A program made the translations under genes and the position numbers. This document shows positions 8,417 to 34,842 of a stretch of DNA of 64,000 bases, in pieces; within the stretch, counting starts at the first letter, position 1; each line of letters opens with the position of its first letter. The notes under the pieces are model-generated. The model had not been told where the DNA came from, ran no database searches, and saw only the letters and a list, made by a program, of their open reading frames with translations. The stretch is from a virus: the IMG/VR virus record IMGVR_UViG_3300045988_074170; one strand, given 5' to 3'.

Positions 8417-8439
8417 ACACTTGTTTTTATTTGACGCTA

Positions 8440-16900: not shown

Positions 16901-19900
16901 TTATAACGTCAAAGTAACGATATTCGACTCGAAACAGGCTCTCAGCGTGTTCACCTCTTTACGGTTGTCGTAGGAAAGGATACCATTGATGAGTATCAGG
17001 TTCGCTCTTCCGCACGATAACAGGGGTTCCAACTGTTCGTATTCCTGCTGGAATATCACAATTTCGATGAACTCGTAGTTCTCCTCTAATATCAAACGAC
17101 ACATCGTATCCCCCTTGCGGGTCTTCTTAATCTCCATTTCAGCGATGAACCCAGCCAACACGACGTACCCGTTATTCGGCTTCACTTCCGTGTCGTGACA
17201 CTCCTCAAGAGTAGCATATTCGTAGGCATCAGGGAACTCCCCAGCGAACCTGTCATATATTTTCTGGTAATCAAAGAACGCCAGTCCGGATACTTTCTTT
17301 TGTAGGAGTGCCCACCACCACGCGTCATTGGCGTGGAAGTCGGCTCCAACTAATACAGGGTCATCTTCCTTGACATTTCCCTTCGTTGTTCCGAGGAAGT
17401 GTACAAACAGGTCTATTCGTTCCTGGGGTTTCTTTACCCCCTCAAGACTGTCGAACGCTCCTGCCAATATCAAGTTTCTGATGATACGACTGTTCACTGC
17501 TGAACCCTTCCATTTATGTCGGGTGATAAAGTCGTCTAATGACCAATATTGACCGTTCTCTGTGCGTTCCTTTATAATCTGGGTTGCAGCCTTTTCTGCG
17601 ACCTGTTTGACTCCTGTAATTGACCAATACAAGGCTTTCTCTTTGAAGTTGATAACAACATCGGTATCCGATATATTGATATCCACAGGACGTACCGTAC
17701 AGACTCCCGTTTTATTGATTTCCGCAATATAGCGTGAATAGTCAGACTCCATCGCATATTTAAACGCCACCGACCAATACTCAATAGGATAGTGAACCTT
17801 TATCCACTGAGAGATATAGCCTGTAATTGCATAGGCAGCAGCGTGGCTTCGGTTGAACAGGTACGTCGAAGCCTTATCAATAGCGTCCCACACCTTTTCG
17901 GAGTATTCCTGGGTGACGTTATAGTTGTCCCGATAGTAAGGAATAAACCGTTCTTTGTACTGCTGGAGAGCCTCGTATTTCTTCTTCACCATCGCTTTAC
18001 GAACGTCATCGGCTTCCACCAACGACAGCCCACCCAACTCACGACAGAGTTGCATGATTTGTTCCTGATAGGCAAATACTCCATACGTGTTATTCAGTAT
18101 CTTGTCCGTTCCGGTGAAATACTCAACCTCCTTCTGACCCTCTTTACGGGAGACGTACTCGTTATGGAAGTTGTTCTCCATTGCTCCTGGGCGATACAAT
18201 GAAATAGCAGCGATAAGGTCTTCAATATTGTCTGGCTTCATCTGACGACAATAACCTGTCAATCCGGAACTACCAAAGTGGAAGTTATCCTCGTTCCAAC
18301 CATTCTTGAAATACCTGTACACCTCTGGGTCATCCAACGGCACACTGAAGATGTCTAAATCCACACCCTCGTGCTCCTTCACCAGCCGAACCATGTCCTG
18401 GAACTTGTCGAACTGTTTCACACCCAGCACGTCCTCTTTTAGGAAGCCAGCAGCATCCATCTCACCACCTTCCCACTCGGTTACATACTCCTCGCCATTC
18501 TTACGAATAGGAACCCAATGAAACATATCGTGTTCCTCTGGGAATACCATCATCGCACAGGCATGAATTGACTGAGCCTTTGGTGCGGGCATTATCAGCA
18601 TCACTTCATTGATGAGGTCGGAATGTTCAACGACAAAGTTCTTCACTCGTGAATGAGCACAGGCTATCTTGAACAGGTCTTCAGGCTTCCTGTCCTTGAC
18701 GTCAAACACTTTCATCATTTCGTTCGTTTCCTGGAAGTCCAACCCGTACACACGAGCCATATCCTTGATGGCTGCTCGTAACTGTAATGCGCTGTAAGTT
18801 CCCACGGAACACACCTGTTTCCAGCCGTACCGTTCTTCCATGTATTTCTTCACACGGGGACGGTCTTCACCAGGATAGTCGCAGTCAATATCAGGGAGTG
18901 ATACCTTAACACGTCCTGCGTTCAAGAAACGCTCAAAGAGTAGGTCGTATCGCATTGGGTCTAACTTGGTAATCCCCAACAGGTAGGAGACAAGACAACC
19001 ACCAGCCGAACCACGACTGATACCCGTCATTATACCGTTACGATGGCACCAGTTGATAATGTCCCAAGTAATTAGGAAGTAGTCAATTGCTTCCCCTAAC
19101 TTTATAACACCCACCTCTCGGTCTATTCGTTCCATAATGACCTTTTCACCCCAATCCTCAATGAGGTCTGGGTGACGCTCAAGACCGTCGGCTATAAGAG
19201 ACCAAAAGAGGTCTTCATTTGTTTCGAACTGTTTTGCCTCTTCCTTTGTCATCTTATAGTGAGGCAAGTGTCTCTTCTTTACGTCGATGACAAAGGTTAT
19301 CGCCTCAGCAATGTTTTCGAGGAATTCCAACCCTTCCATGAAACGGCTGTACACGTCCATGAACCCTTCTTCGGTATCCGGAAACATTTGAGCCAACTCA
19401 ACAAACAGTTGGTCGTTCGATTTAAAGTATTGATTATCGCTCTCGTAGGCAGTTGTTCCACCAATACTATGTAGGCGAGGTCTGATACAACTGTACTCCT
19501 CGTCAAGATACCACGCATCAACCGACGGAACGGGTAACAGGTTCTTGTCCTTGAAGAATTTCTTCAGGTTCGTCAGATACCATTCGTCACGGTTATCATC
19601 TACATATTCGCATGGGTCTAACTGATAAACGGCAGCGTCTATATGCAAGTCTTTCAACTTGTCGTAATCCGTTGTCTTCGGGTCAAGAAACATAATCAAA
19701 TCATCGTTGTTAGTGGTGATTTTATTGAAATCCTCAAGACCGATGTACTTCGGATTGTCACAGTTGATGAACTTGTTTATAGTAAGGAGGTCTCGCCAAC
19801 CCTTGTCGTTCCTTGCGTACACCTTAACAGTGAAGCGGAAATCCCGAGGCTGGTCATATACCACACACTCCATACCAATCACGCTCTTGATGTCGTTCTT

Positions 19901-20401
19901 CTGGCATTCCGCTTGGAACTTCAACGCTCCGGCAAGTGAATTCTTTTCACAGATACCCAACGTCTTCACTCCAAGAAACTTTGCCTTCTTACACCAGTCG
20001 GCATACGTTCCCGTCCCGGACATCATTTCATATTGACCATGAACTCCCAAGAATACAGGGGTTTCAATTTCCTGTTTCGCCTGACCGATATATTTCAGCC
20101 GTGTGAGTTTCACGTCATTCTCTTTACCTTTGGCGAGCATATAATACACTCCTCCAAAACTGAATGCGTAGAAGTCACATGATGTTTCGACGGATTCCTC
20201 TCCCGAGCCTTTACGCTTCGGGTCGGCAGGAATACCAACAAAGTTGAACCCGTCATCAAACAGTGCACCGTCATACGCTGGCTGATACAATTCAAAGGTC
20301 TTCCCTCCTATCTCGACCACATAGTCAGAAATAGGAGCGAAGTCCATTAAATTCTTCTCAAGATATTCTTTGAATTTATCCATTGATTTTCTGCTTAACA
20401 A
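16901..20401 (-). CDS. dnaE: DNA polymerase III alpha subunit (DnaE-type C-family polymerase)
   Basis: 1166 aa. It has an N-terminal PHP-like region, PDIDCDYPGEDR (the PDID motif of the palm), RSHAAAYA, and a C-terminal OB-like region. Confidence 0.9.
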   Translation of the reverse strand: MLSRKSMDKFKEYLEKNLMDFAPISDYVVEIGGKTFELYQPAYDGALFDDGFNFVGIPADPKRKGSGEESVETSCDFYAFSFGGVYYMLAKGKENDVKLTRLKYIGQAKQEIETPVFLGVHGQYEMMSGTGTYADWCKKAKFLGVKTLGICEKNSLAGALKFQAECQKNDIKSVIGMECVVYDQPRDFRFTVKVYARNDKGWRDLLTINKFINCDNPKYIGLEDFNKITTNNDDLIMFLDPKTTDYDKLKDLHIDAAVYQLDPCEYVDDNRDEWYLTNLKKFFKDKNLLPVPSVDAWYLDEEYSCIRPRLHSIGGTTAYESDNQYFKSNDQLFVELAQMFPDTEEGFMDVYSRFMEGLEFLENIAEAITFVIDVKKRHLPHYKMTKEEAKQFETNEDLFWSLIADGLERHPDLIEDWGEKVIMERIDREVGVIKLGEAIDYFLITWDIINWCHRNGIMTGISRGSAGGCLVSYLLGITKLDPMRYDLLFERFLNAGRVKVSLPDIDCDYPGEDRPRVKKYMEERYGWKQVCSVGTYSALQLRAAIKDMARVYGLDFQETNEMMKVFDVKDRKPEDLFKIACAHSRVKNFVVEHSDLINEVMLIMPAPKAQSIHACAMMVFPEEHDMFHWVPIRKNGEEYVTEWEGGEMDAAGFLKEDVLGVKQFDKFQDMVRLVKEHEGVDLDIFSVPLDDPEVYRYFKNGWNEDNFHFGSSGLTGYCRQMKPDNIEDLIAAISLYRPGAMENNFHNEYVSRKEGQKEVEYFTGTDKILNNTYGVFAYQEQIMQLCRELGGLSLVEADDVRKAMVKKKYEALQQYKERFIPYYRDNYNVTQEYSEKVWDAIDKASTYLFNRSHAAAYAITGYISQWIKVHYPIEYWSVAFKYAMESDYSRYIAEINKTGVCTVRPVDINISDTDVVINFKEKALYWSITGVKQVAEKAATQIIKERTENGQYWSLDDFITRHKWKGSAVNSRIIRNLILAGAFDSLEGVKKPQERIDLFVHFLGTTKGNVKEDDPVLVGADFHANDAWWWALLQKKVSGLAFFDYQKIYDRFAGEFPDAYEYATLEECHDTEVKPNNGYVVLAGFIAEMEIKKTRKGDTMCRLILEENYEFIEIVIFQQEYEQLEPLLSCGRANLILINGILSYDNRKEVNTLRACFESNIVTLTL

Positions 20402-21023
20402 GTTCCGTTATATCGTCACCATCCTTACAACCCAACGACAGGAAGTATTGAGCAAACTTCTCGCTGACATGGTCATTCAATTCATAGGAGTCCGAATGAT
20501 AATCACAGAAGTATATCTGAACTTCTTTACCTGTCGCCTCGGCAACCTTGAAGATAGCCTCAGCCTCACAGTCGAAACGCAATGAGCCAAACACGATATC
20601 GCACATAAGAGCGTCTTCTTCAGACATCTTTGCCCAACTGTTCGTAACAGCGTTTGCCGTCCAACGTGCCCATACGTCTTCTCCAGCCAATGACTTGAGA
20701 TATTCGCCTGTACGCCGTAACAGTTCACGACCCTCAACCCGTACCGAGTCAAGAATATTAGGAGACTCTTCTTGAGGCTTGAACGGTAACAAGATGTCGC
20801 TGCTCAACTGTTTCCACTTCGCATACGCTTCACCCGTACAGTCAATCTTCTTTGATTCCCCTGTAAAGATGTTCATCAACGTCTGGCGAATTCCTTCACT
20901 GAAATCTCCCATAATCATGGGTCGTTCTTCACACGCAGCACCAACCATAAGTGCTTCTGCTTGGTACGATTTACCGGAGCCAATAACCCCTACCAAGCCA
21001 TATATCTTTCCTTTAAGGCTCAT
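20376..21023 (-). CDS. Deoxynucleoside monophosphate kinase-like P-loop protein (T4 gp1-like)
   Basis: Walker A GVIGSGKS. GRELLRRTGEYL / VWARW / GSLRFDCEAEAI resemble T4 Dnk blocks (SVRRLMQALG / YWVKLF / DTRQDHEMDAA). Confidence 0.5.
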   Translation of the reverse strand: MSLKGKIYGLVGVIGSGKSYQAEALMVGAACEERPMIMGDFSEGIRQTLMNIFTGESKKIDCTGEAYAKWKQLSSDILLPFKPQEESPNILDSVRVEGRELLRRTGEYLKSLAGEDVWARWTANAVTNSWAKMSEEDALMCDIVFGSLRFDCEAEAIFKVAEATGKEVQIYFCDYHSDSYELNDHVSEKFAQYFLSLGCKDGDDITELVKQKING

Positions 21024-21552
21024 ATTGATTCATGAATTTTTGAATGCTCTTGAAGAGTTTCCAGCCGTCCGTGTACTTCTCCAACAGTTGTTCGCAGTTT
21101 GTGATACAAGTCAATAACTTCTTGGACGTGTTTCCCAGAGCCTGTTCGCTCTTACAGAATATCCATAAGTCCAAATAATCACAGGTCTTGAAAAGACGGT
21201 ACTGGAGGTCAGTCATTGTCTTCTTAATTTCTTCATCGGAATACGGCAACAGGTTCACGTCGCCATAACAGATTTCGTATTCAATGATATCCCATGCCGC
21301 AGCCGTGTTCTCATTGAATTTCTTTACGCACGCATTGAGGTCGCCTGTAACACTTTCCACGTAGTCGTGGAGTAACACCTTGTCAAACACGTTGATGTCG
21401 TAAGCAACGTCCTCTTCTGAGGCAAACCAACGAAATAACATGCCTACCACCAACCCATGCTCCAAGAGGTTGTACCCCCTGTGATGGGGGGTATTAGGCA
21501 ACCTCTGGATGTCTTTCATCCCTAACAGGATGTCAATCTTCTTGAAATTCAT
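21013..21552 (-). CDS. HD-domain 5'-deoxynucleotidase (YfbR-like)
   Basis: NLLEHGLVVG...LLHDYVESVTGDLNACVKKFN closely parallels YfbR (NVSEHSLQVA...[21 protein letters not shown]). Confidence 0.7.
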   Translation of the reverse strand: MNFKKIDILLGMKDIQRLPNTPHHRGYNLLEHGLVVGMLFRWFASEEDVAYDINVFDKVLLHDYVESVTGDLNACVKKFNENTAAAWDIIEYEICYGDVNLLPYSDEEIKKTMTDLQYRLFKTCDYLDLWIFCKSEQALGNTSKKLLTCITNCEQLLEKYTDGWKLFKSIQKFMNQYEP

Positions 21553-21584
21553 AACTAAATTGTCTTTATTTTAGTGGATAATTC

Positions 21585-22703
21585 TTATCCGATGAACAGT
21601 TCGTTCAGTAACGGGTTCCGGAACTCTACCAACTGTTTTGTCCAATAACGGAAGATAACCTTTGCCCAGTCAGAGAACATCTCATCTTCAAACTTTTCAA
21701 TATCCGCACGCAATAACTCGAAGTCCTGTTCTGTACGGTTTTCACTGTTACGACAGTTTTCTTCGAACTGGCTCAACTGAGCGATAAGCGCATCGAACTC
21801 CTCTAAAGTTTTAAACGTCGTCTTATAGGAAAAGTTTACTCCGGAAGGATACGAATTTGGGTCTCTTTTAGCGATTTCTTCAGCCAACGGAATGAAGTCC
21901 TTATAGACATGAAGATTGTCTGCCTTGTGGTAATATTTCCCGACAGGCACGCCCACTATCGCTGCGACGTACTCCTGCATCAATGTAAAGTTGAACACGT
22001 TCACCGCACTGAACCCCCAGATAAGGTCATTCGAACGGATATCCACGTAACAGTTCATCTTTCCATTCACTATCATGAAGTGGATTGAACGGGTACACGG
22101 TGTATCCTTTGTGAGGAGCAATGGAGCCTTTTCCCCGTCCTCTTCATTCTGATTGAAGTTGTCAGAGATAGGGTCGTGAATTGTGATAACCGCTTCACGG
22201 GTATCGATGTCCTGCTTGAACTTTTCAATGACGAACCGTAATTGGTCAGTCACGTTCTGGTACAGTCCGGGAGCCTTCAATTTTGAATAACGACCGTTTT
22301 CGTCTGCTTTACCGTTCTTATACTGTCGCGGAAGTAACTTTCCGGACAATGTTACCATCGAATCAAAATTGTCCCCGTAACGACGTATTCTGGGTCCATA
22401 TCCCGCTCTCATGAACTTCCCATCATCTGAAAAGTTTACAAGGTTCTTCACGTAGGAAGCAGGCATCTCAAGACTGTTATCCCCACGAGCCAACCACAGG
22501 GACTCAATCCACCCCAATGTTTTGTTCCATTTACGCTCCGGAACACGAACATAGCGGTCGGTCGGATTAGTTATCTCAATGAGGACGGCTCCAGGGAACT
22601 CACGACATTCGAACCCTCTTCGGGTAACGTCAATCCCTTTATCCATCAATTCCTTACAAAGTAGCACCAGCGCACTACTCAAATTTTCTGCTTGAAAATA
22701 CAT
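21585..22703 (-). CDS. Thymidylate synthase-family enzyme, candidate dUMP hydroxymethyltransferase (or ThyA)
   Basis: TPCTRSIHFMIVNGKMNCYVDIRSNDLIWGFSAVNVFNFTLMQEYVA aligns to the ThyA core [34 protein letters not shown] (catalytic Cys, RS.D, Asn). 372 aa, with a long C-terminal extension. Confidence 0.7.
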   Translation of the reverse strand: MYFQAENLSSALVLLCKELMDKGIDVTRRGFECREFPGAVLIEITNPTDRYVRVPERKWNKTLGWIESLWLARGDNSLEMPASYVKNLVNFSDDGKFMRAGYGPRIRRYGDNFDSMVTLSGKLLPRQYKNGKADENGRYSKLKAPGLYQNVTDQLRFVIEKFKQDIDTREAVITIHDPISDNFNQNEEDGEKAPLLLTKDTPCTRSIHFMIVNGKMNCYVDIRSNDLIWGFSAVNVFNFTLMQEYVAAIVGVPVGKYYHKADNLHVYKDFIPLAEEIAKRDPNSYPSGVNFSYKTTFKTLEEFDALIAQLSQFEENCRNSENRTEQDFELLRADIEKFEDEMFSDWAKVIFRYWTKQLVEFRNPLLNELFIG

Positions 22704-22717
22704 AAGTCTTTCTTGAT

Positions 22718-23752
22718 TTAATCGATTAATAATTCTCCTGGCTTGGGCAACTTAGCATTCCACTTCGGGGGGAATACGAACTCAATCTTCTTCGGACTCT
22801 TTTCGTAGGTGTGCTTGATACGTTCATTTCTACCTTTGTTGAAAGACGCTCCTAATCCCTTTGCAAACTTCGATGTTTCACAGAAACAGTTCTGAAGATT
22901 TGTAAGAGTAGGAACAGGCTCCCACGGTAACGGGTTCCACTTCATACCTGTCTTTTCGCAGAAGTCACCCATCAGCCTTTCAAAGTTGTCGTGAACCCAC
23001 TTGATAGTGCCCACATAGTCATAACGCTTTCCGGACGCTCCGTCAAATGTCCAACCGATACCTTTCAGCGACCCTGGACCAGTGATGACAAAATCGTTTT
23101 CCGAAAAGTTAAACAGGGGTGAATAATTCAGGTCAATGCAATATTGCTGAGCCGTGAAGTCCCCGTAGATTTTCATATTCCTGAAAACCCAATACAAGTC
23201 CTCAAAGGTCTTCGCCTCTAAGAAGTCATACAAGTGTCCGTTCTGAAAGATTTCATCTTCGAAGATACGAAAGTGGGCACGATGCTTGCTCATCCCTGTA
23301 ATATGTTTATATTCGGGATATTGATAGAAGAAGCAGTTCACGATGTAGGCATTACCATATATCGTGTCTCCGCCATCAACAACCTTGTCAAGAAACTTCG
23401 CTATGTTTTCCAAGCCTGTTTCGTAGGTGATGTCCCCGAACTCCTTTTCCAACAAATCCCACGTTTCGTTCTTATTGAAATGCTTGAAAAGCAATATGCG
23501 AAAGAACATATCCTCTGGTTCATACTGTTTGCCATTGTAAATTACACGGCTCAACAGGTATTGGCTGACCCTATCCAAGCATCTATAAACATTGGTGAAC
23601 TTGAATCCCCGAAGTATTTCATCGTCTGTCCATGGTCCAACCTGTCCATTGTACTTTTTCCAGAAAATGTTTTGTCTTTCGCATATCCAATACAAAAACC
23701 AATTAAATGTTTCTAATGGAACTGGCTTAAACGATTTTATATCTTTTCCCAT
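22718..23752 (-). CDS. All-alpha protein, candidate alpha-glutamyl/putrescinyl-thymine pyrophosphorylase-like (aGPT-Pplase) DNA base hypermodification enzyme
   Basis: The N-terminal block FNWFLYWICERQNIFWKK..GPWTDDEILRGFKFTNVYRCLDRVSQYL resembles, from memory, proteins annotated as DNA base hypermodification proteins. The call rests mainly on gene context (TS-like enzyme plus P-loop kinase). Confidence 0.35.
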   Translation of the reverse strand: MGKDIKSFKPVPLETFNWFLYWICERQNIFWKKYNGQVGPWTDDEILRGFKFTNVYRCLDRVSQYLLSRVIYNGKQYEPEDMFFRILLFKHFNKNETWDLLEKEFGDITYETGLENIAKFLDKVVDGGDTIYGNAYIVNCFFYQYPEYKHITGMSKHRAHFRIFEDEIFQNGHLYDFLEAKTFEDLYWVFRNMKIYGDFTAQQYCIDLNYSPLFNFSENDFVITGPGSLKGIGWTFDGASGKRYDYVGTIKWVHDNFERLMGDFCEKTGMKWNPLPWEPVPTLTNLQNCFCETSKFAKGLGASFNKGRNERIKHTYEKSPKKIEFVFPPKWNAKLPKPGELLID

Positions 23753-24521
23753 TCGTTAATTCTCTTGATTTTATAAATTTACATAAAGATTTCCGGCACA
23801 CCCCTAAAGATTCTTTAGCAATTCCAATTGAATCAAAAGTCCTCAAAATTTCCCCTGAGTCAGAAATTTCAATCACTCTTTTAGAACGTTCCCGTTTAAA
23901 ATCTTCAGAATGATGCTTACCATAAAAAGGATTCTTTTCTCCTAATTTTGATTTAGAAAGATTTAACTTGTGAGTTTCAGAAAATTTCCTTCCCTTCCTT
24001 GCTAAAGACATTTTCAAACGAACCTCTACAGAGGCTTTCTTTCCTAAATGTGCTTTAGAAATACGCTTTCGACCCTCTTCGGTTAAATAACACTTTCCTC
24101 TTCTACTTTCCGCAGATTTTCTTATTGATTCTTTTGATGGATGATAACCCTTTCGAGCTAAAGACATATTTCTACGACCTTCTTCTGAAACTTTCCAAGA
24201 CGCACCCAATGTGCCTTCACCACCATCCGTCGTATTGTACCCGTTGCGTCGGGTGTCGTACTTCTGAATGAAGTGTCTCTCAAGGAAGTCAAGCTTCGCT
24301 TTAAGAGCCTGTAAAGAGGAAGCCTCAACCGATATGACTTCCTCTATTGTGAAGTTCTTGGAACCGTACTTTCGAATCGCTCTATGAAACTTGAGAGCGG
24401 AACCGTTGTTAGCGGAAACAACATGCTGGCGCCACCGTGCCTCAATCGACCTAACAGTTTGCCCAAAATACGGCTTTCCATTCTTTAGGCAAGTGACGCA
24501 ATATATTATCCCGCGCTCCAT
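23727..24521 (-). mobile_element. Free-standing GIY-YIG homing endonuclease gene with NUMOD3-like repeats
   Basis: GIIYCVTCLKNGKPYFGQT (GIY-YIG), RWRQH, FHRAIRKYG, YNTTDGGEG, and repeated SxEGRRxxSxARKG modules. Confidence 0.85.
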
Positions 24522-25258
24522 TATTTACCTTTCTCAAACGTTTCAAAAGAGTTTCTTTCAATGTAGTCCGACGCTTCACAGAAAGCCACGAACTCTTCAC
24601 ATAGTTCTGACAGCCCAAAGAAATTGAAAATATGAACACCCAAGTCCCAGACCGGAGCGTCATACGGTTGGTCGTGAAGAACCACACAACCGCCAGCCTC
24701 ATTCACCTCTTCTCCCTCTCTTTGAGCCTTTTCGAAGTCGTGCATAAAGGTTCTGTGCTTTCGCCACATGCAATCTCCCTTAGGAGACTCGCCAGACCTG
24801 TATGCTATCCGAGCACAATACTCATCCCATTGGTCGTCACGGTAATCATACCTGACATGGAGAATGTTCGTAAACTCACTCTCTCCGCATAAATCCAAGG
24901 GACGCAATCGCCATGATACAGTTGTTCCTGCACCATCAATCAAAACTCCATGCCCTGCCTTAGACGTTTCCTTCAAGAAGTAGGATAGACCCTCAGCCTT
25001 GCACAGTCGCGACGTCATACTGTCGTAACCTTGCCAGCGTCGGATACCGCCATTCTCATAGAATTTCCCAACGAAAACCATATTGAAGTCCTCGGAGTAA
25101 ACCCCGACTTCCTTTTCCTTTCCGTCAAGTGTCTTAAACTTGTATGGGCGGAGTTTCATACCTAATGATTCGAAGAACTCGAGGAAGAGGTAAACCCTTG
25201 TAGATTTACCGCTCCCCGAGATGCCTTTAACCAATACTATGGATTCCCCGTCAACCAT
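24521..25258 (-). CDS. P-loop kinase, candidate 5-hydroxymethyluracil DNA kinase
   Basis: Walker A GISGSGKST and Walker B-like VLIDGAG. The functional guess is from context only. Confidence 0.4.
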   Translation of the reverse strand: MVDGESIVLVKGISGSGKSTRVYLFLEFFESLGMKLRPYKFKTLDGKEKEVGVYSEDFNMVFVGKFYENGGIRRWQGYDSMTSRLCKAEGLSYFLKETSKAGHGVLIDGAGTTVSWRLRPLDLCGESEFTNILHVRYDYRDDQWDEYCARIAYRSGESPKGDCMWRKHRTFMHDFEKAQREGEEVNEAGGCVVLHDQPYDAPVWDLGVHIFNFFGLSELCEEFVAFCEASDYIERNSFETFEKGK

Positions 25259-25978
25259 TTACTTCTTCTTTGGAGTTTTCTTTGCGGGTGCAGGTTTGGC
25301 GTCCTCAGCCAGTTCCAACGCTGTTACACGTTTCTTGATAGGCTTGTCGTCACCGAACTTGACCATACACTTTTCTTTTCCGTCTCCGGACTTGTACAGG
25401 CGAGTGATTTCACCAACAGCGTCCTCGCCTTTCAGGATAACTTTCGAACCTACTTTCAGTCCCGGAATTTCTTCCGATTCTTCGAGGTTCTGACGTTTTG
25501 TTTCACGAGGAGTCTTGTCGGCTTTCGCTGACTTCTTTTCCTTCATAGACTTGTCTGATTTAGACGGAGTCTTGCGGTTTTTCTGACGTTCCTCGTACTC
25601 TGCCTCAGCCTTTGCCAAGCGTTCTTCCTCTTCCGGAGTCAGTTGTTCTTCTGACTGATAGGTAGAGTTGCGTTTGTTCTGACGTTTCATTGCTGCTTCG
25701 GGTGAACCGTCTTCAGGGTCGGGGTCTTCAGCAGCCTCTTCTTTCGCAGCTTTCTTAGGAGCAGCCTTTTTGTCAGCTTTCTTTTCAGCGACTTTCTTGG
25801 CTGGAGCTTTCTTAGGAGCTTCCTCTTCTTGAGCGGTTTCGCCACCTAATTTGTCAAGGAACTCTTGAGCTACCTTAACTTCCAATTCACTTGAATTTTC
25901 ATCATTGATGATTTCTTCGAGCTTTTCAGCATCGAACTTTCTGTACTTCATCCGAAGTGCTAATGCATTACTTGCCAT
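25259..25978 (-). CDS. Lys/Ala/Glu-rich low-complexity protein with small C-terminal beta domain (possible DNA-binding protein)
   Basis: KKAPAKKVAEKKADKKAAPKKAAKEE histone-H1-like tracts. The C-terminal KVGSKVILKGEDAVGEITRLYKSGDGKEKCMVKFGDDK looks like a KOW/Tudor-like barrel. Preceded by a promoter-like motif. Confidence 0.45.
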   Translation of the reverse strand: MASNALALRMKYRKFDAEKLEEIINDENSSELEVKVAQEFLDKLGGETAQEEEAPKKAPAKKVAEKKADKKAAPKKAAKEEAAEDPDPEDGSPEAAMKRQNKRNSTYQSEEQLTPEEEERLAKAEAEYEERQKNRKTPSKSDKSMKEKKSAKADKTPRETKRQNLEESEEIPGLKVGSKVILKGEDAVGEITRLYKSGDGKEKCMVKFGDDKPIKKRVTALELAEDAKPAPAKKTPKKK

Positions 25979-26096: not shown

Positions 26097-26294
26097 TTAT
26101 TTTTTGCCGGAATGACCAAATCCACCCGCACCTCTCTCAGTGTCAGTGAGTTCTTCGACTGAAGAAACTTCGACAACTTCCTCGACTTTTGCATACGGAG
26201 CAAAGACGATTTGGGCAATTCTGTCACCATTCTCGATTGTTTGTGGTTCTGTCGACAGGTTAATCAACGGAACACCTACTTCCCCACGATAATC
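26097..26294 (-). CDS. dut: dUTPase, exon 2 (motif 3 second half, motifs 4-5)
   Basis: [21 protein letters not shown] and [11 protein letters not shown] are dUTPase motifs 3b, 4 and 5. Confidence 0.8.
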
Positions 26295-27164
26295 CATTTA
26301 ATTTTGGAGATTGTTAATCTAACAGGCTCTTTATCCTGCTATTTCTTTGCTTTATTTTGTTATATGCAAAGTTCAGACTATATCTTCACTTTCTTTTGAA
26401 AGGCAGGACACTCGTGTCAGCATTACTGTCCTCAACCTTACTTGTTTGGACTCGGCTGTTAGTCGTTGAACCTTCAAGAACATTACTGTTCATGCTTGGC
26501 TGCTGATTGCCCACTTCTGGGTTTTCCAGCAATTCACCCTGTTTTAAGACGCCAATTATTCTGCCTGTTTTATTGTCTCTAATAATTGTCTTTTCAAAAT
26601 TATGAATTGTCGTATGCTCTCCGCGAGTTAAAACTTCAAGATTTTCTAATCGATTGTCAGTCTTATCTTCATTTATATGATGAACATCGTAACAATCTTT
26701 CAAAACTATCCAGCCACATATATTTTCAAACAGTTCTTTAGAAAACTTGTCATAGTTTCTTTCAATGATTAATCTGTGTTTCAATATATAAGTTGCCTTC
26801 CCTCTATCTCGAATTTTACCACCTTTAGGATGTCCAGGAACATTTTCCATTATATAACCTGCTGAATTTATCTTTTCATCATGCTTATAGGAACTATTCA
26901 ACTCCCCTGTCAATCCAAACTGATGGTTCCCCTCACCCGTCATATATCTTGAACGTAAAATCTTTCCACATTCTTTTGAGCATGAAACTCCATGAATTTG
27001 ACGTTTAAGTCTTGACGGCTTTACCCACATTTTAACTCCACAAATTGAACATTGACAATTTGGTTCTCTATCAAATTTTCCCATACCATTTATATTTATC
27101 GGCACAAAGTTAGTCAACTTTAATAAAGAACCATAGACTCTTATCAAGCAGTCATTAAAAGTCC
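26295..27164 (-). mobile_element. Group I intron (870 nt) carrying an HNH endonuclease ORF, inserted in dUTPase motif 3
   Basis: Joining ...ACG ATA GAC GCT | GAT TAT CGT... restores GTIDADYRGE. The exon ends in U and the intron ends in G. AAGATATAGTC (26386-26376) matches the group I S element. GTTCAACGACTAACA (26471-26457) resembles the R element (GACUA/UAGUC would form P7). Exon ACGATAGACGCT can pair with intron AGAGTCTATGGT (27141-27130), giving a candidate P1. Confidence 0.65.
26386..27147 (-). CDS. Intron-encoded HNH homing endonuclease
   Basis: CYDVHHINEDKTDNRLENLEVLTRGEHTTIHN is a classic HNH motif, and there is an N-terminal CQCSICG...CSKEC zinc motif. The track start is TTG at 27147. 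The first ATG is at 27084. Confidence 0.8.
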   Translation of the reverse strand: MIRVYGSLLKLTNFVPININGMGKFDREPNCQCSICGVKMWVKPSRLKRQIHGVSCSKECGKILRSRYMTGEGNHQFGLTGELNSSYKHDEKINSAGYIMENVPGHPKGGKIRDRGKATYILKHRLIIERNYDKFSKELFENICGWIVLKDCYDVHHINEDKTDNRLENLEVLTRGEHTTIHNFEKTIIRDNKTGRIIGVLKQGELLENPEVGNQQPSMNSNVLEGSTTNSRVQTSKVEDSNADTSVLPFKRK

Positions 27165-27416
27165 AGCGTCTATCGTTCCGGGAGCATTGATTACGGTCAG
27201 ACCCTGTTTAACAGCGCAACCGCTGCGAGGTCTAACCTGACCCTCGTACCCCTGTTCGATTTCCATGTACAAACCAGTAGGAATGATTTTACGCTCCATA
27301 GGAGCCAACGTGATTGAACCCTCGGGAAGATAAGCACGCAAGTCCATACCCGAACTGTCTGGAGTTTTGTACTCCGGCAGAGCATTTGTGCTCTTGTTTA
27401 CGATTTTTAATTTCAT
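27165..27416 (-). CDS. dut: dUTPase, exon 1 (motifs 1, 2 and the first half of motif 3)
   Basis: SSGMDLRA (motif 1), VRPRSGCAVKQG (motif 2) and NAPGTIDA (motif 3a). If unspliced, the frame stops 6 codons past the junction. Confidence 0.8.
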
Positions 27417-27946: not shown

Positions 27947-28657
27947 TTATTTCCATAAATATCCTCGATAAGGCAAACCATCCTCAAGTCTTTTCCTTAA
28001 AGTATGCCCATTCAATTTCAGTTCTCGTTTGATATCAATTATAGTATTCCATTCTTTAATAAATATTCCACCCTTCGAATATTGAAATACTTTTCTACAA
28101 TTATTTTGATACCCAGGTTTTCCCGAATTCGCTTCTGATATTTTTCTTTTTGTTTCTTCTGAATGATGTTTTCCATATAATGGATGATTCTTTCCAGAAA
28201 GTTTATGATTTCCGAAATTCGAATTTAATTCCCCAATTCGTAATTTAGCAGCATCGCTCATTCTTTTCAAAGTCTCATCCGAAAATTTTCTACCTTTCAA
28301 GGCTTTGCTGATTTTAGCAAGTGATTCTTCAGAAAGATTTACTAAACCATCCCCACCATCTGTCGAATTATACCCGTCAATCTTAGTGTTGAACCGCTTT
28401 ATAAGCCTCATTTCAGCGTAGTCAAGTTTCCTCTTGAGAGCATCCTTCGTAGGAGCCTCCACGAACATCACCTCTTCGACCAGGAAGTTCTCCTCACCAT
28501 ACTTTCGTATGGCTCGGTGGAACTTGTGGTCGGAGCCTCGCTGAGAAGAACGAACATGCCGTCTCCAACGACTCCTTATAGAGAGCATCGTTTGCCCGAA
28601 GTACAGTTTCCCAGTGGGCAGACAGGTGACGCAATATATGAAGCCTTTCTGAATCAT
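27947..28657 (-). mobile_element. Free-standing GIY-YIG homing endonuclease gene
   Basis: GFIYCVTCLPTGKLYFGQT, RWRRH, FHRAIRKYG, YNSTDGGDG, and NUMOD3-like GKNHPLYGKHHSEETKRKIS. Confidence 0.85.
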
Positions 28658-29688
28658 AACTTTCCCAAATAAAAATTTAACGGGTCTTCAACATTTTTCA
28701 AAACATCTTCAAGTTCTTCAATTGAAATATTTCCGGGGTCTACTCCTGGAGTTCTAATTGCTGCAACCCAAACTGAATCAAACAAATCCCTCATTCTCAA
28801 GGCTGCTTCTTTACTTTCTTTTATTGTTCCATAGTCGTACAAAAGAATTATATTCTTCACTTTCTTTTTCAAAAGCATATCAATTTGTCCCCGACCAATA
28901 GAATTCCCAAAAGTAAAGCAACATTTCAGCCAATCCTTTTCTGTTAAGTTCAAAAGATTTGAAATTCCTACATAATCAAAAATCCCTTCAACCAAAATAA
29001 CCGTTTCAGTCCTTCCCTCTATCAACTCATCGCAACCCCCTAACAGGTCTTGAAAGTTATTCTCGGAGTTCCTGTAACGTAACACCAAGTCAGCCTCGTG
29101 ACGCTTGTATGCCTCAAGATTTTCTTTGTGCCATTCCTTTGAATACCTACTGCGTGCCCACCACGCCACACACACACCATTGACTTTCATCTTAAAGATG
29201 ATGAAGTTCTTCAACTTCGCTTCCAACGGTGTATTGGTATAGGAAGGCTCGAACTCCGCATAGTGTTCAGGTCGGAACCCACGATTATTCAGGTACTCAT
29301 CATCCACAAGTGGTTTCAGCCGTAACGGAAGAGTAACAGGCTTTAATTCCTCTTCCTGTACCTGTTCCGCATCACCCTCCATCCACTTCGATGTCTCCCC
29401 CTGAATATCACCTATCTTCGGACAGTTCTCAAGTTCATTCGGCTTGACTGTATAGGAGCGTTTCGCGAGGTCTGTTCTACCAAGTTTCTTGAGGAACTCA
29501 TAGACGGACACTTTACGAGGACACTTCCAACAGTGGAACGTTGCCACGCCATTCATGTTGAAGATGATACCCCACTTCCCTGCTTTTCCGCAGAAAGGAC
29601 AGTCCATATCCTTATTCGTGAGCCACCCCTGTGAACCAAATGGCGTGAGATTAAAATCAGCGATTATCTGTTCCTTATCGTACCGCAT
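28654..29688 (-). CDS. DnaG-like DNA primase (zinc finger + TOPRIM)
   Basis: CPFCGK...FHCWKC zinc ribbon, ILVEGIFDYV (TOPRIM Glu) and LLYDYG (DxD-like). The ATG at 29688 is used because the track start at 29748 overlaps the helicase gene by 53 nt. Confidence 0.7.
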   Translation of the reverse strand: MRYDKEQIIADFNLTPFGSQGWLTNKDMDCPFCGKAGKWGIIFNMNGVATFHCWKCPRKVSVYEFLKKLGRTDLAKRSYTVKPNELENCPKIGDIQGETSKWMEGDAEQVQEEELKPVTLPLRLKPLVDDEYLNNRGFRPEHYAEFEPSYTNTPLEAKLKNFIIFKMKVNGVCVAWWARSRYSKEWHKENLEAYKRHEADLVLRYRNSENNFQDLLGGCDELIEGRTETVILVEGIFDYVGISNLLNLTEKDWLKCCFTFGNSIGRGQIDMLLKKKVKNIILLYDYGTIKESKEAALRMRDLFDSVWVAAIRTPGVDPGNISIEELEDVLKNVEDPLNFYLGKL

Positions 29689-29695
29689 AACGAAA

Positions 29696-31339
29696 TTATT
29701 TCTTGCGAGGTACAGGCTTCCTCGTTGTCTTCGGAGTTTCCTGCACACCCTTGTTTGCTAAATATTCCTTGAGCGACTGTTTAGTCTGTCGCTTATTCAA
29801 CGTCTCTTGTGGCTCCTGCGCAGCCGTTTCACCCTCGCCAACTACCTTTGTTCCGTACACTCCTGGTGCTATCTCTACTCGCTCCTTCTTCTCCCCAACG
29901 GCTGCTTCTCCGTTACCTTTACGGCTGCGACGGCTCTCAAGCCTGTCAAGAGCCGACATATCCAACACCTGCTCAACGATTGTTGAACGTGATATATCGT
30001 AGAAGAAGCCGTTCTCGTAATTAGTAGGGATTCGAATGATGATACCATTGTTTCGGTAGTTTCGTAACTTATCACAATAGATACGAGCCATGTTCTGTTT
30101 GCCCTCTTCAATTGTAATGTTACCTGTAAACACGAACGAGAATGGCTTGATAAGTGTGCGGTCACCCTCTGTATTCTGGCGAGTGATTACCCGTGTCGGG
30201 TCGTTCCATACTTCAATAGGAACGTCTCCCGTCTGGGTCGCTGTAATTACGGCACAGTCGTATTTCTTCGCGATATCCTTTAATCGCTGGGCACACTTCT
30301 GTAACCTGTATTTGATGAAGTTCGGGTCGAAGTCAATCTTCTTATTTTCTCCTGTCAATAACAGGTCAATAGAGTCGACTGTGACCAAGTCAGGATAATA
30401 CCCATACTCTTTTTTATAGTCCTCTATCGCAGCCACCAAGTCGGCTATCGTCATGTCCATCATCTCTTCAGAAGCGTACACGTCAATATCACTGTTCACC
30501 GTTTGCGCCCTCTTGATGAGTGCGGAGATACGTTGTCGGGTCTCATCGCTGACATCACCCCTCATGATTTTCGCATAGGTAGTGTTCGCCAACATTTGGT
30601 CAAACTTAACAACCGCCTCATCACGACCACCCTCTAACTGAAAGTGAAGACAATGATTGTGGGCGATTGATGTATTGTACCAAGAGAAGTATTTAAGAGC
30701 CGTGGATTTACCAACACCGGAACGCATGATGAGTAAGACGGTATCCTGGCGAGGAATTCCCCCATCAGTAATTTCGTCAATCGTTGATATTCCTGTCGGT
30801 ATCTTTGCCCGACGTGTTTCATCCTCGGCTTTCATTTGTGCCGTTCCTATGTTCCGATAGAAATCCCTGTACACCCGTACAAACTTCCCTCGGAACTTGT
30901 CTAAGGAAAAAGCGTTTATTTCCGCCATTCTTTTCTCAAGAAGAAGCATCGCTTCCTCTGGCTTCCCTTCATTATACATATCCGACACTTCGTGCTGAGT
31001 AGCAACAAACGTCTGGCGTCTAATAAAGGTTTCCAATTGCCGTGTCATGGGTTCTACCTCTGGAAGTTTAATTCCCTTGACCTCAGCAATCTTCTTTGAA
31101 ACTTCCTCGTTGTTAGGGAAGGTCATTTCCACCATACCGAATGTCGCCAGATTACCCGTTTTCTTCATCGTATCTGCCAACACTTTCAGCATCGCTTTAC
31201 ACCCTCCCAATTCTCGGGGGAAGTTACTTAAATCAAGATTATCTACCACCAACTCCGCAAACTGTTTATTCGCAAAAGCCAACCTCAACATTTCCTCTAC
31301 AAAGTTAGGTGATAGAATAGCATCAACTTTTTTGCCCAT
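29696..31339 (-). CDS. DnaB-family replicative helicase
   Basis: RecA-like C-terminal domain with Walker A MRSGVGKST and Walker B DLVTVDSIDLL, and an N-terminal helical domain. Adjacent to the primase. Confidence 0.75.
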   Translation of the reverse strand: MGKKVDAILSPNFVEEMLRLAFANKQFAELVVDNLDLSNFPRELGGCKAMLKVLADTMKKTGNLATFGMVEMTFPNNEEVSKKIAEVKGIKLPEVEPMTRQLETFIRRQTFVATQHEVSDMYNEGKPEEAMLLLEKRMAEINAFSLDKFRGKFVRVYRDFYRNIGTAQMKAEDETRRAKIPTGISTIDEITDGGIPRQDTVLLIMRSGVGKSTALKYFSWYNTSIAHNHCLHFQLEGGRDEAVVKFDQMLANTTYAKIMRGDVSDETRQRISALIKRAQTVNSDIDVYASEEMMDMTIADLVAAIEDYKKEYGYYPDLVTVDSIDLLLTGENKKIDFDPNFIKYRLQKCAQRLKDIAKKYDCAVITATQTGDVPIEVWNDPTRVITRQNTEGDRTLIKPFSFVFTGNITIEEGKQNMARIYCDKLRNYRNNGIIIRIPTNYENGFFYDISRSTIVEQVLDMSALDRLESRRSRKGNGEAAVGEKKERVEIAPGVYGTKVVGEGETAAQEPQETLNKRQTKQSLKEYLANKGVQETPKTTRKPVPRKK

Positions 31340-31349
31340 ACTAAATTAT

Positions 31350-33449
31350 TTAAACTGCGTCAATTTTTATCATTACAGTGCTCTCTCGTAACTTGTTAAT
31401 CGCCATGAAAGAGGAAGACACGGTATCATCGTGCCCACTGATACTCTCAAGAGTTCCCTTATCGCTGCGGAACGCAACCGAGTTGAACTCCCCAAACATC
31501 TGGTCAATCTTAGCAGCCGTGTCAGGATGATACGGGCACTTGATTACACCTCTCTCAAATAACGCTGCAAGTGATGCCCACCCTGTTCTCAGGTCTTTCT
31601 TATTCCCGGAAGTCGTCGTGAACGGTGTAATATTCTTGATACCCATCTGAACGCACATATCCGCCAATATACTTTGGAAGCCGTTGTTTTCCACGACTAT
31701 CTCGTTTGGCTTGAACACCCTGTTCAGTAGGTCAATCTTCTGTATCTGTTCATTATGAGATAATCCCTTTTCCCGGAATATGTATAGGAGATAATAATTC
31801 CCCTGGACATCCTTCCCCCAAACTGTATAACAAGTATAGTCGGCTCCCACATTTCCTGAGACAGCGAAGTCACAACCCATGACCACCCTCTGTAACTTGA
31901 TAGGAAACGACTCTATGTTATCAACGAGCCTGACGTTTTCCATCCCGATTGTACTCCTCTTTAATATCTCCCAAGGGAAGATTGTACTGTCGTCGGAAAT
32001 AGGTACGACCAAATACTCACGAGAGAATACGAGCGTCCCCAGAGACGCTTTTTCCTCCATAAGTTTTGCCCACGTAAAACGGTCAGGAGCCAACAGGCGA
32101 CCGTCCGGGAATATGGCTGGGTACTCAAAGACACGGAACTTTGGGTCTTTCTTTAATTCGGCATACAAGTCCTCTTGCTGATACGGTGTACCATCAACGA
32201 TGTTATATCCATACGGCTCAACGATAGGCGTGATAGCACCTTTAAACAGGTCTCTCAACTTCTCACGCTGTTCCAATGAATAGATACTACTCTCATCTGG
32301 TAAGTCATCGCTGACCGCTGCCCCCACGTGAAGACCACGAATAAACCCGTCCTTTCCACGGAGGTGAAGTTTCGTTCCGTTCTCACATTCAATACTTGTC
32401 GCTGCCAGTGAAGCCTTTCCAGTAGGGTTCAGTTTTGCTGCCAAAGCCTCATTCACACGGATTTCCTCAACCACCTTGTCAATGTGCTGTTTACCCAGTT
32501 TTTCCGTGTTCGTAATAATACAGGTTTCCTGGCGATTTTTATTGTCAGGAATATCAGGTCGCATAAACGTCGGACGTCGGTAACTGTATAATCTCCACAG
32601 CGGGAACGCCATACAGAACTCGTAGGAATTGTGAACGACTGTACCATCCTCTAACTGAAACAGATGGTCACCATCGCACATAAACCCGTAATAAGACTCT
32701 TCCCCAATAGGTTCAACCGTTATATTCCCACGCTCGAATACAGGCTTATCGTAAGAGAACACCCTGTACCCCTGGAACCGTCTTTGCTTCTTGACAGGAT
32801 ATTTCAGGAATTGTCCCATTTCTATTTCGACATACTTCTTCCGCTTCGTGTCAAAGAGGCACATCGTGTGCGCTCGGTTCACGGCATACGGCATACCATT
32901 CTCCTGCTCAACCCTGAACATCTGGGCACGACCGATATGTCGTGTCAGAACCTTTCGGGGAGTGAAGTCTAATCCCATCACTTCCATTCCAGGATAGATG
33001 TCCTCTATATTCTTCACGGAAAAGTCAGCCATCAGCACCCGTGTACCTCTCGCAAAGCATTTACCGTGAGAACGAGCAGCAAGATATGCGCTGTTCGGAT
33101 AAAGTTGCACCATGTTTCCCCATTCAAGATTTCTCCAACCCTGACGGAAATTAGGAAGCATAGTTGTCTTGAAATAGTTGTACGACTGAACTTTCAGCGT
33201 CTCATCCATTGACTCTTCCAATTGGTCAATGTAGTTGAGCCGTTCAGTTTCAAGCGTGGTATTTAGGGAAAGAACATTATTCGTCTGAATGAAGATTTCC
33301 GATAACAGTGCATCGACGTCACCACCATAGCCACCAACCAATTGATTGATAGCCACAGGTGGTAACGACTCAAGCACGTTGAACGCAGTAGAGAACACCG
33401 TGTCCAACTGTTTGTACGACAACTTTAAATCTTCATTAAAATGTATCAT
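31350..33449 (-). CDS. terL: Terminase large subunit, interrupted by a mini-intein
   Basis: Spliced Walker A AARSHGK|S, Walker B-like GAAVSDDLPDE, and a C-terminal RNase-H-like nuclease (VMGCDFAVS...ADYTCYTVWG...VVENNG...GHDDTVSS). Confidence 0.75.
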   Translation of the reverse strand: MIHFNEDLKLSYKQLDTVFSTAFNVLESLPPVAINQLVGGYGGDVDALLSEIFIQTNNVLSLNTTLETERLNYIDQLEESMDETLKVQSYNYFKTTMLPNFRQGWRNLEWGNMVQLYPNSAYLAARSHGKCFARGTRVLMADFSVKNIEDIYPGMEVMGLDFTPRKVLTRHIGRAQMFRVEQENGMPYAVNRAHTMCLFDTKRKKYVEIEMGQFLKYPVKKQRRFQGYRVFSYDKPVFERGNITVEPIGEESYYGFMCDGDHLFQLEDGTVVHNSYEFCMAFPLWRLYSYRRPTFMRPDIPDNKNRQETCIITNTEKLGKQHIDKVVEEIRVNEALAAKLNPTGKASLAATSIECENGTKLHLRGKDGFIRGLHVGAAVSDDLPDESSIYSLEQREKLRDLFKGAITPIVEPYGYNIVDGTPYQQEDLYAELKKDPKFRVFEYPAIFPDGRLLAPDRFTWAKLMEEKASLGTLVFSREYLVVPISDDSTIFPWEILKRSTIGMENVRLVDNIESFPIKLQRVVMGCDFAVSGNVGADYTCYTVWGKDVQGNYYLLYIFREKGLSHNEQIQKIDLLNRVFKPNEIVVENNGFQSILADMCVQMGIKNITPFTTTSGNKKDLRTGWASLAALFERGVIKCPYHPDTAAKIDQMFGEFNSVAFRSDKGTLESISGHDDTVSSSFMAINKLRESTVMIKIDAV
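32628..33059 (-). mobile_element. Mini-intein (144 aa, no endonuclease domain) in the terminase Walker A loop
   Basis: HGK|CFARGTRVLMADFS...(144 aa)...LEDGTVVHN|SYEF. Cys1 is TGC at 33059-33057. The terminal HN is followed by Ser. The N-terminal block is Hint-like. Confidence 0.75.
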
Positions 33450-34137: not shown

Positions 34138-34842
34138 CTATTTTAATTTGTAACTAAATTCAAATCCATCAACACTTATAATCTTCCCCAAACAACAGCG
34201 ATTTATTCTACCAATTCCAATAGAAGTTTCTAAAGCAGCCTGAGTTAAACTATCAAAAGTTTTCAGCAACTTTCCATCTAAATATTGGTAAACTGCTTTC
34301 CTTCCAACTCCAGTCCTACCTTTGAGAGAATCAGAAATATGTTTCCTCTGTTCAAGAGTTCTCTTCTTTCCCCGAAGTTTTTCTGCTCTATTTTCTATTT
34401 CTATTGTGGACTGTTTTCTTCCTCTTAATGGGGAAATACGCTTTTCTATTTCTTCCTCAGATTGTTTCTTGCCTCTATTTCCTGAGCCCATTTTATACAG
34501 AATTTCTTCAGTAAACTCATACCCACTTCGACCACCCGAAGTTGAATTATAACCATTCTTATAGGAATCGTAAAAAGAAATCCAATATTTTTCTCTTTCA
34601 TCCAACCATTTCACGCATTCAACTAAATTTTGAAATGGTTTCTTTTCAAGGCATTCAACAGAAAAAGAATCTTTACCGTATTTTCGAATTGCTCGATAAA
34701 ACTTACAGTCCTTTATTCGTTTCTTTGTTTTAAATGCCGTCCGGATATGCCGATTAAATCTTCGATGATATTCATGAGTAACCTGACCAATATAAACTTT
34801 ATTAGTCTCAGAGCAAGTCACCATATAAATATATCCAGTCAT
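34138..34842 (-). mobile_element. Free-standing GIY-YIG homing endonuclease gene
   Basis: GYIYMVTCSETNKVYIGQV, FYRAIRKYG, YNSTSGGRSG and repeated basic NUMOD3-like modules. Confidence 0.85.

Follow-up and report, generated by a model that had tools for sequence, protein, structure and literature searches.

The 64,000-nucleotide (nt) stretch of the IMG/VR record IMGVR_UViG_3300045988_074170 that we analyzed (the window) carries, at positions 20376–25258 of the minus strand, a gene cluster that raises the question of what this phage makes of the thymidine in its DNA. A preliminary description of the stretch had placed six open reading frames (ORFs) there and read five of them as a thymidine hypermodification set, composed of a hydroxymethylase resembling thymidylate synthase (TS), an aGPT-Pplase-like protein, a P-loop kinase, a YfbR-like 5'-deoxynucleotidase, and a T4 gp1-like deoxynucleoside monophosphate (dNMP) kinase. 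We found the six ORFs at these positions and on this strand, and four of the five enzyme assignments hold, the label "dNMP kinase" being weakly supported. A protein of the HMUDK_hel family (hereafter HEL), a kinase of the HMUD2 family, and a hydroxymethylase-type TS lie together (Table 1), in agreement with the proposed setting, the gene neighborhood of thymidine modification based on 5-hydroxymethyldeoxyuridine (5-hmdU). Our analysis suggests that the cluster is probably a minimal two-stage module for thymidine replacement and modification, in which HEL would act as a catalytic paralogue of the amino acid:DNA transferase (ADDT).

The 245-amino-acid (aa) P-loop kinase falls into the 5-hmdU DNA kinase family, as the preliminary description had expected. 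It aligned over its full length with Cba120 orf243, a kinase of the ViI gp243 type, at 27% identity, and in an alignment spanning 27–93% identity it kept 20 of 20 invariant positions, including G12, S14, G17, and K18 of the P-loop. ViI gp243 phosphorylates 5-hmdU in DNA, yielding 5-phosphomethyl-dU (5-PmdU) (PMC8989533, section 15). Stage 2 of the module would thus open with the HMUD2 kinase adding one phosphate to the hydroxymethyl group in DNA, which would give 5-PmdU.

The TS homologue could also be an ordinary thymidylate synthase whose neighbors serve general nucleotide salvage unrelated to DNA modification. PHROG and NCBIfam both attach the label "thymidylate synthase" to the 372-aa protein. 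However, its best PDB match was the CMP 5-hydroxymethylase MilA (1.3e-18), against 2.6e-8 for the best ThyA; its Pfam TS match spanned profile positions 57–235 of 266, with the ThyA C terminus absent; and its NCBIfam ThyA scores fell far under the cutoffs (e.g. 45.7 bits versus 327). The protein has an Asn at the position of the cytosine-specifying Asp in MilA, and Asn also occupies this pyrimidine-specificity position in M6 gp58, SP10 gp188, and every aligned TS gene adjacent to HMUDK_hel. Identity was 31% to SP10 gp188 (7e-37) and 26% to M6 gp58 (1e-26). Given the closer match to MilA, the Asn at the specificity site, the missing C terminus, and the low NCBIfam scores, a plain ThyA is very unlikely. 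By homology, the protein would be an enzyme of the hydroxymethylase type with specificity for uracil, its closest counterparts being SP10 gp188 and M6 gp58, and it groups with the phage dUMP hydroxymethylases, as first proposed. Two of its neighbors belong to families specific to the modification of 5-hmdU DNA (4.6e-75 and 5.5e-24), and we regard the salvage explanation as a whole as highly improbable.

The other cluster enzymes were examined in the same way. The HD protein aligned with the PDB entry of YfbR (2paq, 1.5e-5) with the HD...E..TGDL motif in register, which bears out its assignment, and the pairing of TS with a YfbR-like gene recurs in M6 (gp58/gp59) and in 46 of 70 related loci. 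The gene context suggests a dTMP-clearing role for it. The 215-aa P-loop protein matched PHROG 139 (4.5e-6) over residues 5–157 and no family in Pfam or NCBIfam, and neither its sequence nor a profile of 11 homologues matched any PDB chain (E > 0.1). With this single PHROG match, the protein stands as a P-loop protein, and the T4 gp1-like label is weakly supported. Its gene directly follows the HD gene in 39 of the 70 loci, its invariant residues are G12, G15, G17, K18, F41, S42, R46, R99, R149, and E153, and the gene context suggests that it may phosphorylate 5-hydroxymethyl-dUMP (hmdUMP). A dUTPase had been noted upstream of the cluster; it is present at 26097–27416, split by an 869-nt insert. 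Rfam recognized a group I intron in the insert (RF00028, 64.4 bits, E 1.2e-15, at 26357–26606), and the intron-borne ORF encodes an HNH endonuclease (Pfam HNH_3, 3.4e-8). Close relatives lack the intron and have an uninterrupted 149-aa dUTPase gene, with a Pfam dUTPase match in locus L003, so that the intron is polymorphic in the population.

In stage 1, as read from homology, the intron-split dUTPase would supply dUMP, the TS-family enzyme would convert it to hmdUMP, the YfbR-like nucleotidase would clear competing dTMP, the 215-aa protein may phosphorylate hmdUMP, and the phage DnaE polymerase would make DNA containing 5-hmdU. The synthesis of hmdUMP, the incorporation of hmdU, and its phosphorylation in DNA are well supported as predictions by homology to characterized enzymes.

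Does the phage go further and exchange the phosphate for an amine or an amino acid, as PhiW-14, ViI, and M6 do and as the preliminary description had suggested? Pfam scans of the window ORFs found no ADDT, pyridoxal phosphate (PLP), radical S-adenosylmethionine (SAM), amidoligase, or GATase protein, and the remaining ORFs were replication, recombination, and structural genes only. Because the genome measures ~106–108 kb, the remaining ~43 kb were reconstructed from close relatives by a walk through L009, the merged loci L021, L041, and L063, and then L074 and L096, which closed the circle to the portal region. The L009 stretch encodes UvrD, a class II ribonucleotide reductase (RNR), GroEL, and DUF4494. 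The walked ORFs include a ferritin, a sigma factor, a Tad2-like protein, HU, a glucosaminidase, DUF2400, a PNK3P-type HAD phosphatase, BACON-domain proteins, a papain-like peptidase, Rep3, the portal, and NUDIX. Pfam scans and precomputed Pfam matches found none of the five enzyme types in these ~43 kb either, which extends to the rest of the genome the reported lack of PLP, radical-SAM, and amidoligase genes in the window. Enzymes that could tailor the adduct, whether a PLP decarboxylase, radical SAM, FAD lyase, GNAT, amidoligase, or GATase, were likewise missing from the window and the genomes of the relatives.

We also built a custom ADDT hidden Markov model (HMM) from 13 phage homologues and M6 gp51. 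We applied it to all six-frame stop-to-stop ORFs of the window and of the regions covered by the walk, among them the retrieved parts of a 107,782-bp contig with 99% identity to the window across ~14 kb at the cluster. Its best E value was 1.9, compared with 8e-69 for M6 gp51. These results do not support hypermodification by transfer of an amine or amino acid along the published route. With the ADDT step missing, the case extends to hmdU synthesis and DNA phosphorylation and does not establish hypermodification.

What follows the kinase depends on HEL, the 344-aa protein. Pfam splits two families: PF18724 ADDT ("amino acid:DNA transferase"), which matches M6 gp51 at 1.4e-46, and PF18723 HMUDK_hel, which matches M6 gp55 (8.1e-56), the ViI-like SJ3 ORF171 (4.9e-82), and the C-terminal half of SP10 gp186, whose N-terminal half is a HMUD1 kinase. 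In this order, the two families are clades 2 and 1 of what Iyer et al. called "aGPT-pyrophosphorylases." The match of HEL to PF18723 spans profile positions 3–273 of 281 with 253 bits. Foldseek comparison of the HEL AlphaFold2 model (predicted local distance difference test score 94) with BFVD retrieved SP10 gp186 at a template-modeling (TM) score of 0.73, PhiW-14 C9DG43, and proteins named "Pplase1 ... clade 1." The aGPT-Pplase assignment of the preliminary description thus stands at the level of the superfamily. As to function, the protein belongs to clade 1 HMUDK_hel and not to the clade 2 ADDT proteins, which put glycine, serine, putrescine, or diaminopropane in the place of the phosphate (PMC8989533, PMC11472151, PMC13458397).

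Several features make a catalytic HEL plausible. Across members from M6, SP10, ViI-like phages, LuckyBarnes, and gut phages, which are 18–46% identical to the window protein, 14 residues are invariant (R26, P40, F52, N54, R57, D60, A135, F199, D207, G227, G231, C291, E292, and K295), among them a C-E-x-x-K motif. After its own family, the HEL model matched ADDT proteins in BFVD, with a probability of 0.8–1.0 and TM scores of 0.37–0.44. An hhalign comparison of HEL with ADDT was colinear over 203 columns and placed C291 on the conserved ADDT cysteine, a result that was not significant (E 0.052, probability 1%). That cysteine is essential by mutagenesis in M6 gp51 and ViI gp247 and is proposed to attack C6 (PMC8989533, section 17). 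HEL would be, by this reasoning, a catalytic, DNA-acting ADDT paralogue whose Cys291 attacks C6 of the modified uracil, and it may resolve the activated base to thymine or a simple adduct.

A second line of reasoning comes from characterized phages. SP10, PhiW-14, M6, and ViI turn leftover hmdU into T within the polymer by an enzyme that has not been identified (PMC5889632; PMC8989533, introduction). In SP10, hmdU gives rise to both glutamyl-T and T at this level (PMC5889632, Table 3); no ADDT occurs anywhere in the SP10 genome, and the helical domain forms one protein with the kinase. HEL is therefore the obvious candidate for processing the activated base. More tentatively, and with appreciably less confidence than we place in the module itself, the kinase and HEL can be read as a self-sufficient post-replicative system in which Pplase1 resolves phosphorylated 5-hmdU through Cys291, the product being thymine or an unseen base, such as packaged 5-phosphomethyl-dU or a simple metabolite adduct.

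A number of observations weigh against a catalytic HEL and the module built on it. Its relationship to ADDT is statistically weak (hhalign 1%, no Pfam ADDT match, best PDB Foldseek E > 1). We found no activity assigned in the literature to clade 1 or to any HMUDK_hel protein. None of the published reconstitutions required clade 1, M6 gp55 and ViI gp160 were dispensable for hypermodification in vitro (PMC8989533), and the kinase domain of SP10 is active in the absence of the helical domain (PMC8989533, sections 15–16). HEL also occurs without a 5-hmdU kinase: LuckyBarnes, of which we searched the first 50,000 of 50,774 bp, has TS, two glycosyltransferases, and HEL with no HMUD kinase and no ADDT, and loci L102 and L138–141 have a cytidylyltransferase and a glycosyltransferase in place of HMUD2. 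The presence of HEL in kinase-free genomes rules out a role that strictly requires 5-PmdU. A reduction to thymine has no obvious hydride donor or cofactor-binding domain to support it, the dNMP kinase and dTMPase roles are assumptions, and the survey of the rest of the genome used close relatives and not the window's own contig throughout.

A role of HEL as an ADDT-type catalytic transferase was considered separately and rejected: the protein had no Pfam ADDT match at E ≤ 0.1, BLASTP against M6 gp51 was not significant, and hhalign probabilities were 0.3–1%. Against the PDB, Foldseek gave no match with E < 1 for the HEL model and only weak recurring matches to OGG1 and PaMx11 gp46.

An alternative reading is that 5-PmdU, alone or together with 5-hmdU, is the terminal base and that HEL is a noncatalytic accessory, for example in DNA binding or base flipping, in sequence targeting, or as a shield against host glycosylases. 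The kinase alone phosphorylates in vitro, and phosphorylation alone blocks cleavage by NcoI (PMC8989533, section 15). The Pfam name describes the helical domain of the kinase; HEL is fused to the kinase in SP10 and adjoins it in M6 and the window phage; and it is kept with any cassette, whether kinase, ADDT, or glycosyltransferase, as expected of a generic helper. However, Cys-Glu-x-x-Lys and 11 other polar or aromatic residues are invariant down to 18% pairwise identity, which would be unusual for a scaffold. To our knowledge, no phage packages 5-PmdU. The SPO1-type hmU phages, moreover, do without HEL (PMC5889632). We consider an accessory HEL unlikely, albeit an alternative of some weight.

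A further possibility is a roundabout route to thymine, in which hmdU is replicated, phosphorylated, and fully reduced to T by HEL, so that virions are canonical. It would fit with SP10, PhiW-14, M6, and ViI, in which all hmdU that escapes hypermodification ends as T (PMC5889632; PMC8989533, introduction) and in which HEL is the one conserved component without an assigned job. In addition, borohydride reduces the methylene intermediate generated by ADDT to T (PMC8989533, section 17), and the phage assembles easily from standard short-read metagenomes, with a 3796-member cluster and many contigs of 106–108 kb. Yet DNA containing hmdU is also expected to assemble easily, no reductant-binding domain is evident, HEL is found in kinase-free genomes, and the selective advantage of complete reversion is unclear. 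We judge this route quite improbable. The terminal base of the phage may be 5-PmdU, thymine, or a new adduct, depending on what HEL does.

To learn how stable the arrangement is, we collected 75 IMG/VR loci with HMUDK_hel, of which 70 gave a callable HEL gene. TS adjoins HEL in 55 of these 70, and an ADDT lies within 10 kb in 13. A clade of loci has the same replication module, which runs from primase/helicase through dUTPase and a variable cassette to HEL, TS, HD, the P-loop protein, and DnaE, the DnaE gene lying immediately downstream of the module in every case. In ~36 loci, whose HEL is 42–100% identical to that of the window, the cassette is HMUD2 alone, and the order is HMUD2, an endonuclease or none, HMUDK_hel, TS, HD, P-loop, and DnaE; none of them has an ADDT within 10 kb. 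The recurrence of the same order in these loci shows that the arrangement is not due to chance. Judged by its predicted genes, the cluster represents the known 5-hmdU pathway in a new and minimal form, whose layout of kinase, HEL, TS, and HD without ADDT is stable over ~36 loci.

Other members of the clade carry different cassettes at this site. A second type has HMUD2 together with other enzymes, either GATase, ADDT, a 292-aa protein, and GNAT (L146, L147, and L150; Pfam ADDT 8.8e-20) or a 363-aa protein, an ADDT-like 401-aa protein, and a 240-aa protein (L153 and L103). A third type (L138–141 and L102) has no kinase and carries a 351-aa protein without a Pfam match, a cytidylyltransferase, and a GT1 glycosyltransferase. 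Across loci L102, L103, L138–L141, L146, L147, and L150–L153, the site upstream of HEL-TS-HD looks like a swappable "modification island." The 351-aa protein gives the impression of a fusion of HAD and an aminoglycoside-kinase-like domain. Loss of the kinase in near-identical relatives was ruled out in the five loci that we retested, where tblastn found HMUD2 intact (L106, L108, L121, L142, and L130); L107 was not among them. Among cultured phages, HMUD2, HEL, and ADDT counts match by genus (Salmonella 160–164, Vibrio 62, Klebsiella 44–45, and Escherichia 29), and we found no combination of HMUD2 and HEL without ADDT, single records such as Pseudomonas phage Cygsa01 not having been checked.

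The GIY-YIG endonuclease gene that interrupts the cluster is present as described, and it is not a structural feature of the cluster. The relative L003 lacks the region corresponding to window positions ~23822–24479 and has a 98-bp spacer there, with 98% nucleotide identity in the HEL-side flank. At the same junction, relatives have unrelated endonucleases of 201, 205, 262, 264, or 289 aa, or none. The junction between kinase and HEL is a homing hot spot, and the GIY-YIG gene is a selfish mobile insertion without a role in the pathway. We also considered whether it split a former kinase-HEL fusion of the SP10 type; this was rejected, as in endonuclease-free relatives kinase and HEL are separate genes that either lie 98 bp apart or overlap slightly.

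The features of the region are compiled in Table 1. Every gene of the 64-kb window lies on the minus strand, and the cluster ORFs are closely packed, with overlaps of 1–26 nt or gaps of 14–32 nt.

Table 1. Features of the thymidine modification cluster and its surroundings, with window positions and the evidence for each
Feature	Positions	Strand	Evidence
dUTPase exon 1 (residues 1–84)	27165–27416	-	tblastn with the 149-aa dUTPase of relative L109, 93% identity
Group I intron in the dUTPase gene, with HNH ORF 26386–27147	26295–27163	-	Rfam RF00028; Pfam HNH_3
dUTPase exon 2 (residues 85–149)	26097–26294	-	tblastn with the intact homologue, 97% identity
Predicted 5-hmdU DNA kinase, HMUD2 type, 245 aa	24521–25258	-	Pfam PF18747 HMUD2, 5.5e-24
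GIY-YIG/NUMOD3 homing endonuclease, 264 aa	23727–24521	-	Pfam GIY-YIG, 2.9e-7; NUMOD3, 2.1e-12
HMUDK_hel (HEL)/aGPT-Pplase clade 1 protein, 344 aa	22718–23752	-	Pfam PF18723, 4.6e-75, 253 bits
Predicted dUMP hydroxymethylase, TS family, 372 aa	21585–22703	-	Pfam Thymidylat_synt, 5.1e-17; PHROG 5131, 2.9e-63
YfbR-like HD 5'-deoxynucleotidase, 179 aa	21013–21552	-	Pfam PF12917, 4.1e-14
P-loop protein, 215 aa, possible dNMP (hmdUMP) kinase	20376–21023	-	PHROG 139 "dNMP kinase," 4.5e-6 only
DnaE-type replicative polymerase	16901–20401	-	Pfam PHP, DNA_pol3_alpha, finger, and HHH_6 domains

Between dUTPase and kinase lies a gene for a 239-aa protein that is rich in Lys, Glu, and Ala and whose C-terminal domain is small and globular (25259–25978, minus strand). 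It is kept at this position in relatives, with 225–240 aa in the closest, and had no family match in Pfam, PHROGs, NCBIfam, or PADLOC. A PADLOC scan of the unassigned proteins gave nothing useful. A small protein encoded at 7994–8452 (minus strand) had a weak match to HD_4, the RelA/SpoT-type HD domain (4.7e-6, slightly under the Pfam cutoff), and would be a second HD-domain protein of the replication module.

Mobile elements are not confined to the cluster. The minus strand carries at least three, and probably four, free-standing GIY-YIG/NUMOD3 genes, namely the one in the cluster and those at 27947–28657, 34138–34842, and probably 58513–59109. The large terminase subunit (699 aa, 31350–33449, minus strand) contains a Hint-type intein from residue 131 (Pfam Hom_end_hint, 2.9e-14), with the N-terminal boundary "CFARGTRV...". 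Relatives also have inteins, in DnaE (1489 aa versus 1166 aa; L004 and L005), the UvrD helicase, and the class II RNR.

With regard to the phage itself, the cluster had no nucleotide match among 50,697 phage records, and the phage has no close cultured relative. The nearest relatives of its major capsid protein are those of the Bacteroides thetaiotaomicron phages DAC16-23 and SJC03 (33–34% identity). At 90% identity, the helical protein falls into a cluster of 3796 sequences, with many contigs of 106–108 kb, and the collection lists a neighboring structural protein in 1718 of its blocks. Taken with the human fecal sources and the encoded BACON and Flg_new domains, the capsid relatives identify the lineage as an abundant gut myovirus that is presumably associated with Bacteroidales. 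Relatives encode a 253-aa DUF2400 protein (Pfam 1.4e-60) outside the window, at 29639–30400 of the merged loci L021, L041, and L063 and at 12231–12989 of L079, in the 99%-identical 107.8-kb genome; it had no PDB sequence match. Near its gene are a Tad2-like anti-Thoeris domain, a crAss001_48-related protein, the PNK3P-type phosphatase, and a sigma-70 factor.

Two open questions of the 5-hmdU pathways meet in this cluster: the role of the second aGPT-Pplase paralogue, which is universally conserved, and the step from 5-hmdU to thymine in DNA, which is unknown according to Lee et al. 2018. The lineage offers a pathway reduced to kinase and Pplase1, with nothing else to confound a reconstitution, and sister phages with ADDT or glycosyltransferase cassettes at the same locus form a natural control set. 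If our proposal is true, Pplase1 would be the long-sought enzyme for the hmdU-to-T step of SP10, PhiW-14, M6, and ViI, or the maker of an unseen base. Since the phage is abundant in human gut metagenomes and has BACON and Flg_new domains, which suggest hosts among the Bacteroidales, a noncanonical base, if present, would matter for sequencing bias in gut viromes, for the ways in which phages of Bacteroidales escape restriction, and for the engineering of phages.

Compared with known systems, the cluster shares with ViI and the Ackermannviridae an orthologue of the gp243/Cba120 orf243 kinase, a HMUDK_hel protein (27–28% identity to SJ3 ORF171), and a TS of the dUMP-hydroxymethylase type. The ViI set consists of gp243 (kinase 2), gp160 (Pplase1), gp67 (kinase 1), gp247 (serine:DNA transferase), and gp226 (PLP decarboxylase) (Lee et al. 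2018, 2021); the window phage has no counterpart of the second kinase, the ADDT transferase, or the PLP decarboxylase. Whereas the ViI genes are dispersed, those of the window phage are contiguous, and whereas HMUD2 and ADDT counts match per genus in cultured phages, the window phage has HMUD2 without ADDT.

The gene order resembles that of the M6 cluster gp51–gp59, which comprises ADDT, PLP, radical SAM, kinase, Pplase1, Nmad5, TS, and HD. Kinase, HMUDK_hel, TS-like, and YfbR-like HD genes follow one another in both, with two small genes, one of them Nmad5, between HMUDK_hel and the TS-like gene in M6. M6 differs in having ADDT, PLP, and radical-SAM genes immediately upstream as well as Nmad5, in its HMUD1-type kinase, and in being a siphovirus with a PolA-type polymerase. 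SP10, which makes α-glutamylthymidine and T from hmdU, likewise has a kinase partnered with HMUDK_hel beside a TS homologue, the dUMP hydroxymethylase gp188, and no ADDT, and its major capsid protein is distantly related (29%). In SP10, however, the kinase is of the HMUD1 type and fused to the helical domain, in contrast to the separate HMUD2 gene of the window; the adjacent 896-aa gp185 (radical SAM per Lee 2018) is absent here; and the host is a Firmicute. Finally, the SPO1-type hmU phages, in which T is completely replaced by hmU and not modified further, resemble the window phage in the pre-replicative logic predicted for it, with dUTPase, dUMP hydroxymethylase, dTMP removal, and a possible dNMP kinase, and in a Herelleviridae-like capsid ancestry. 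They lack the DNA kinase and the Pplase-type protein (PMC5889632), whereas the window phage has both, which points to processing of hmdU in its DNA.

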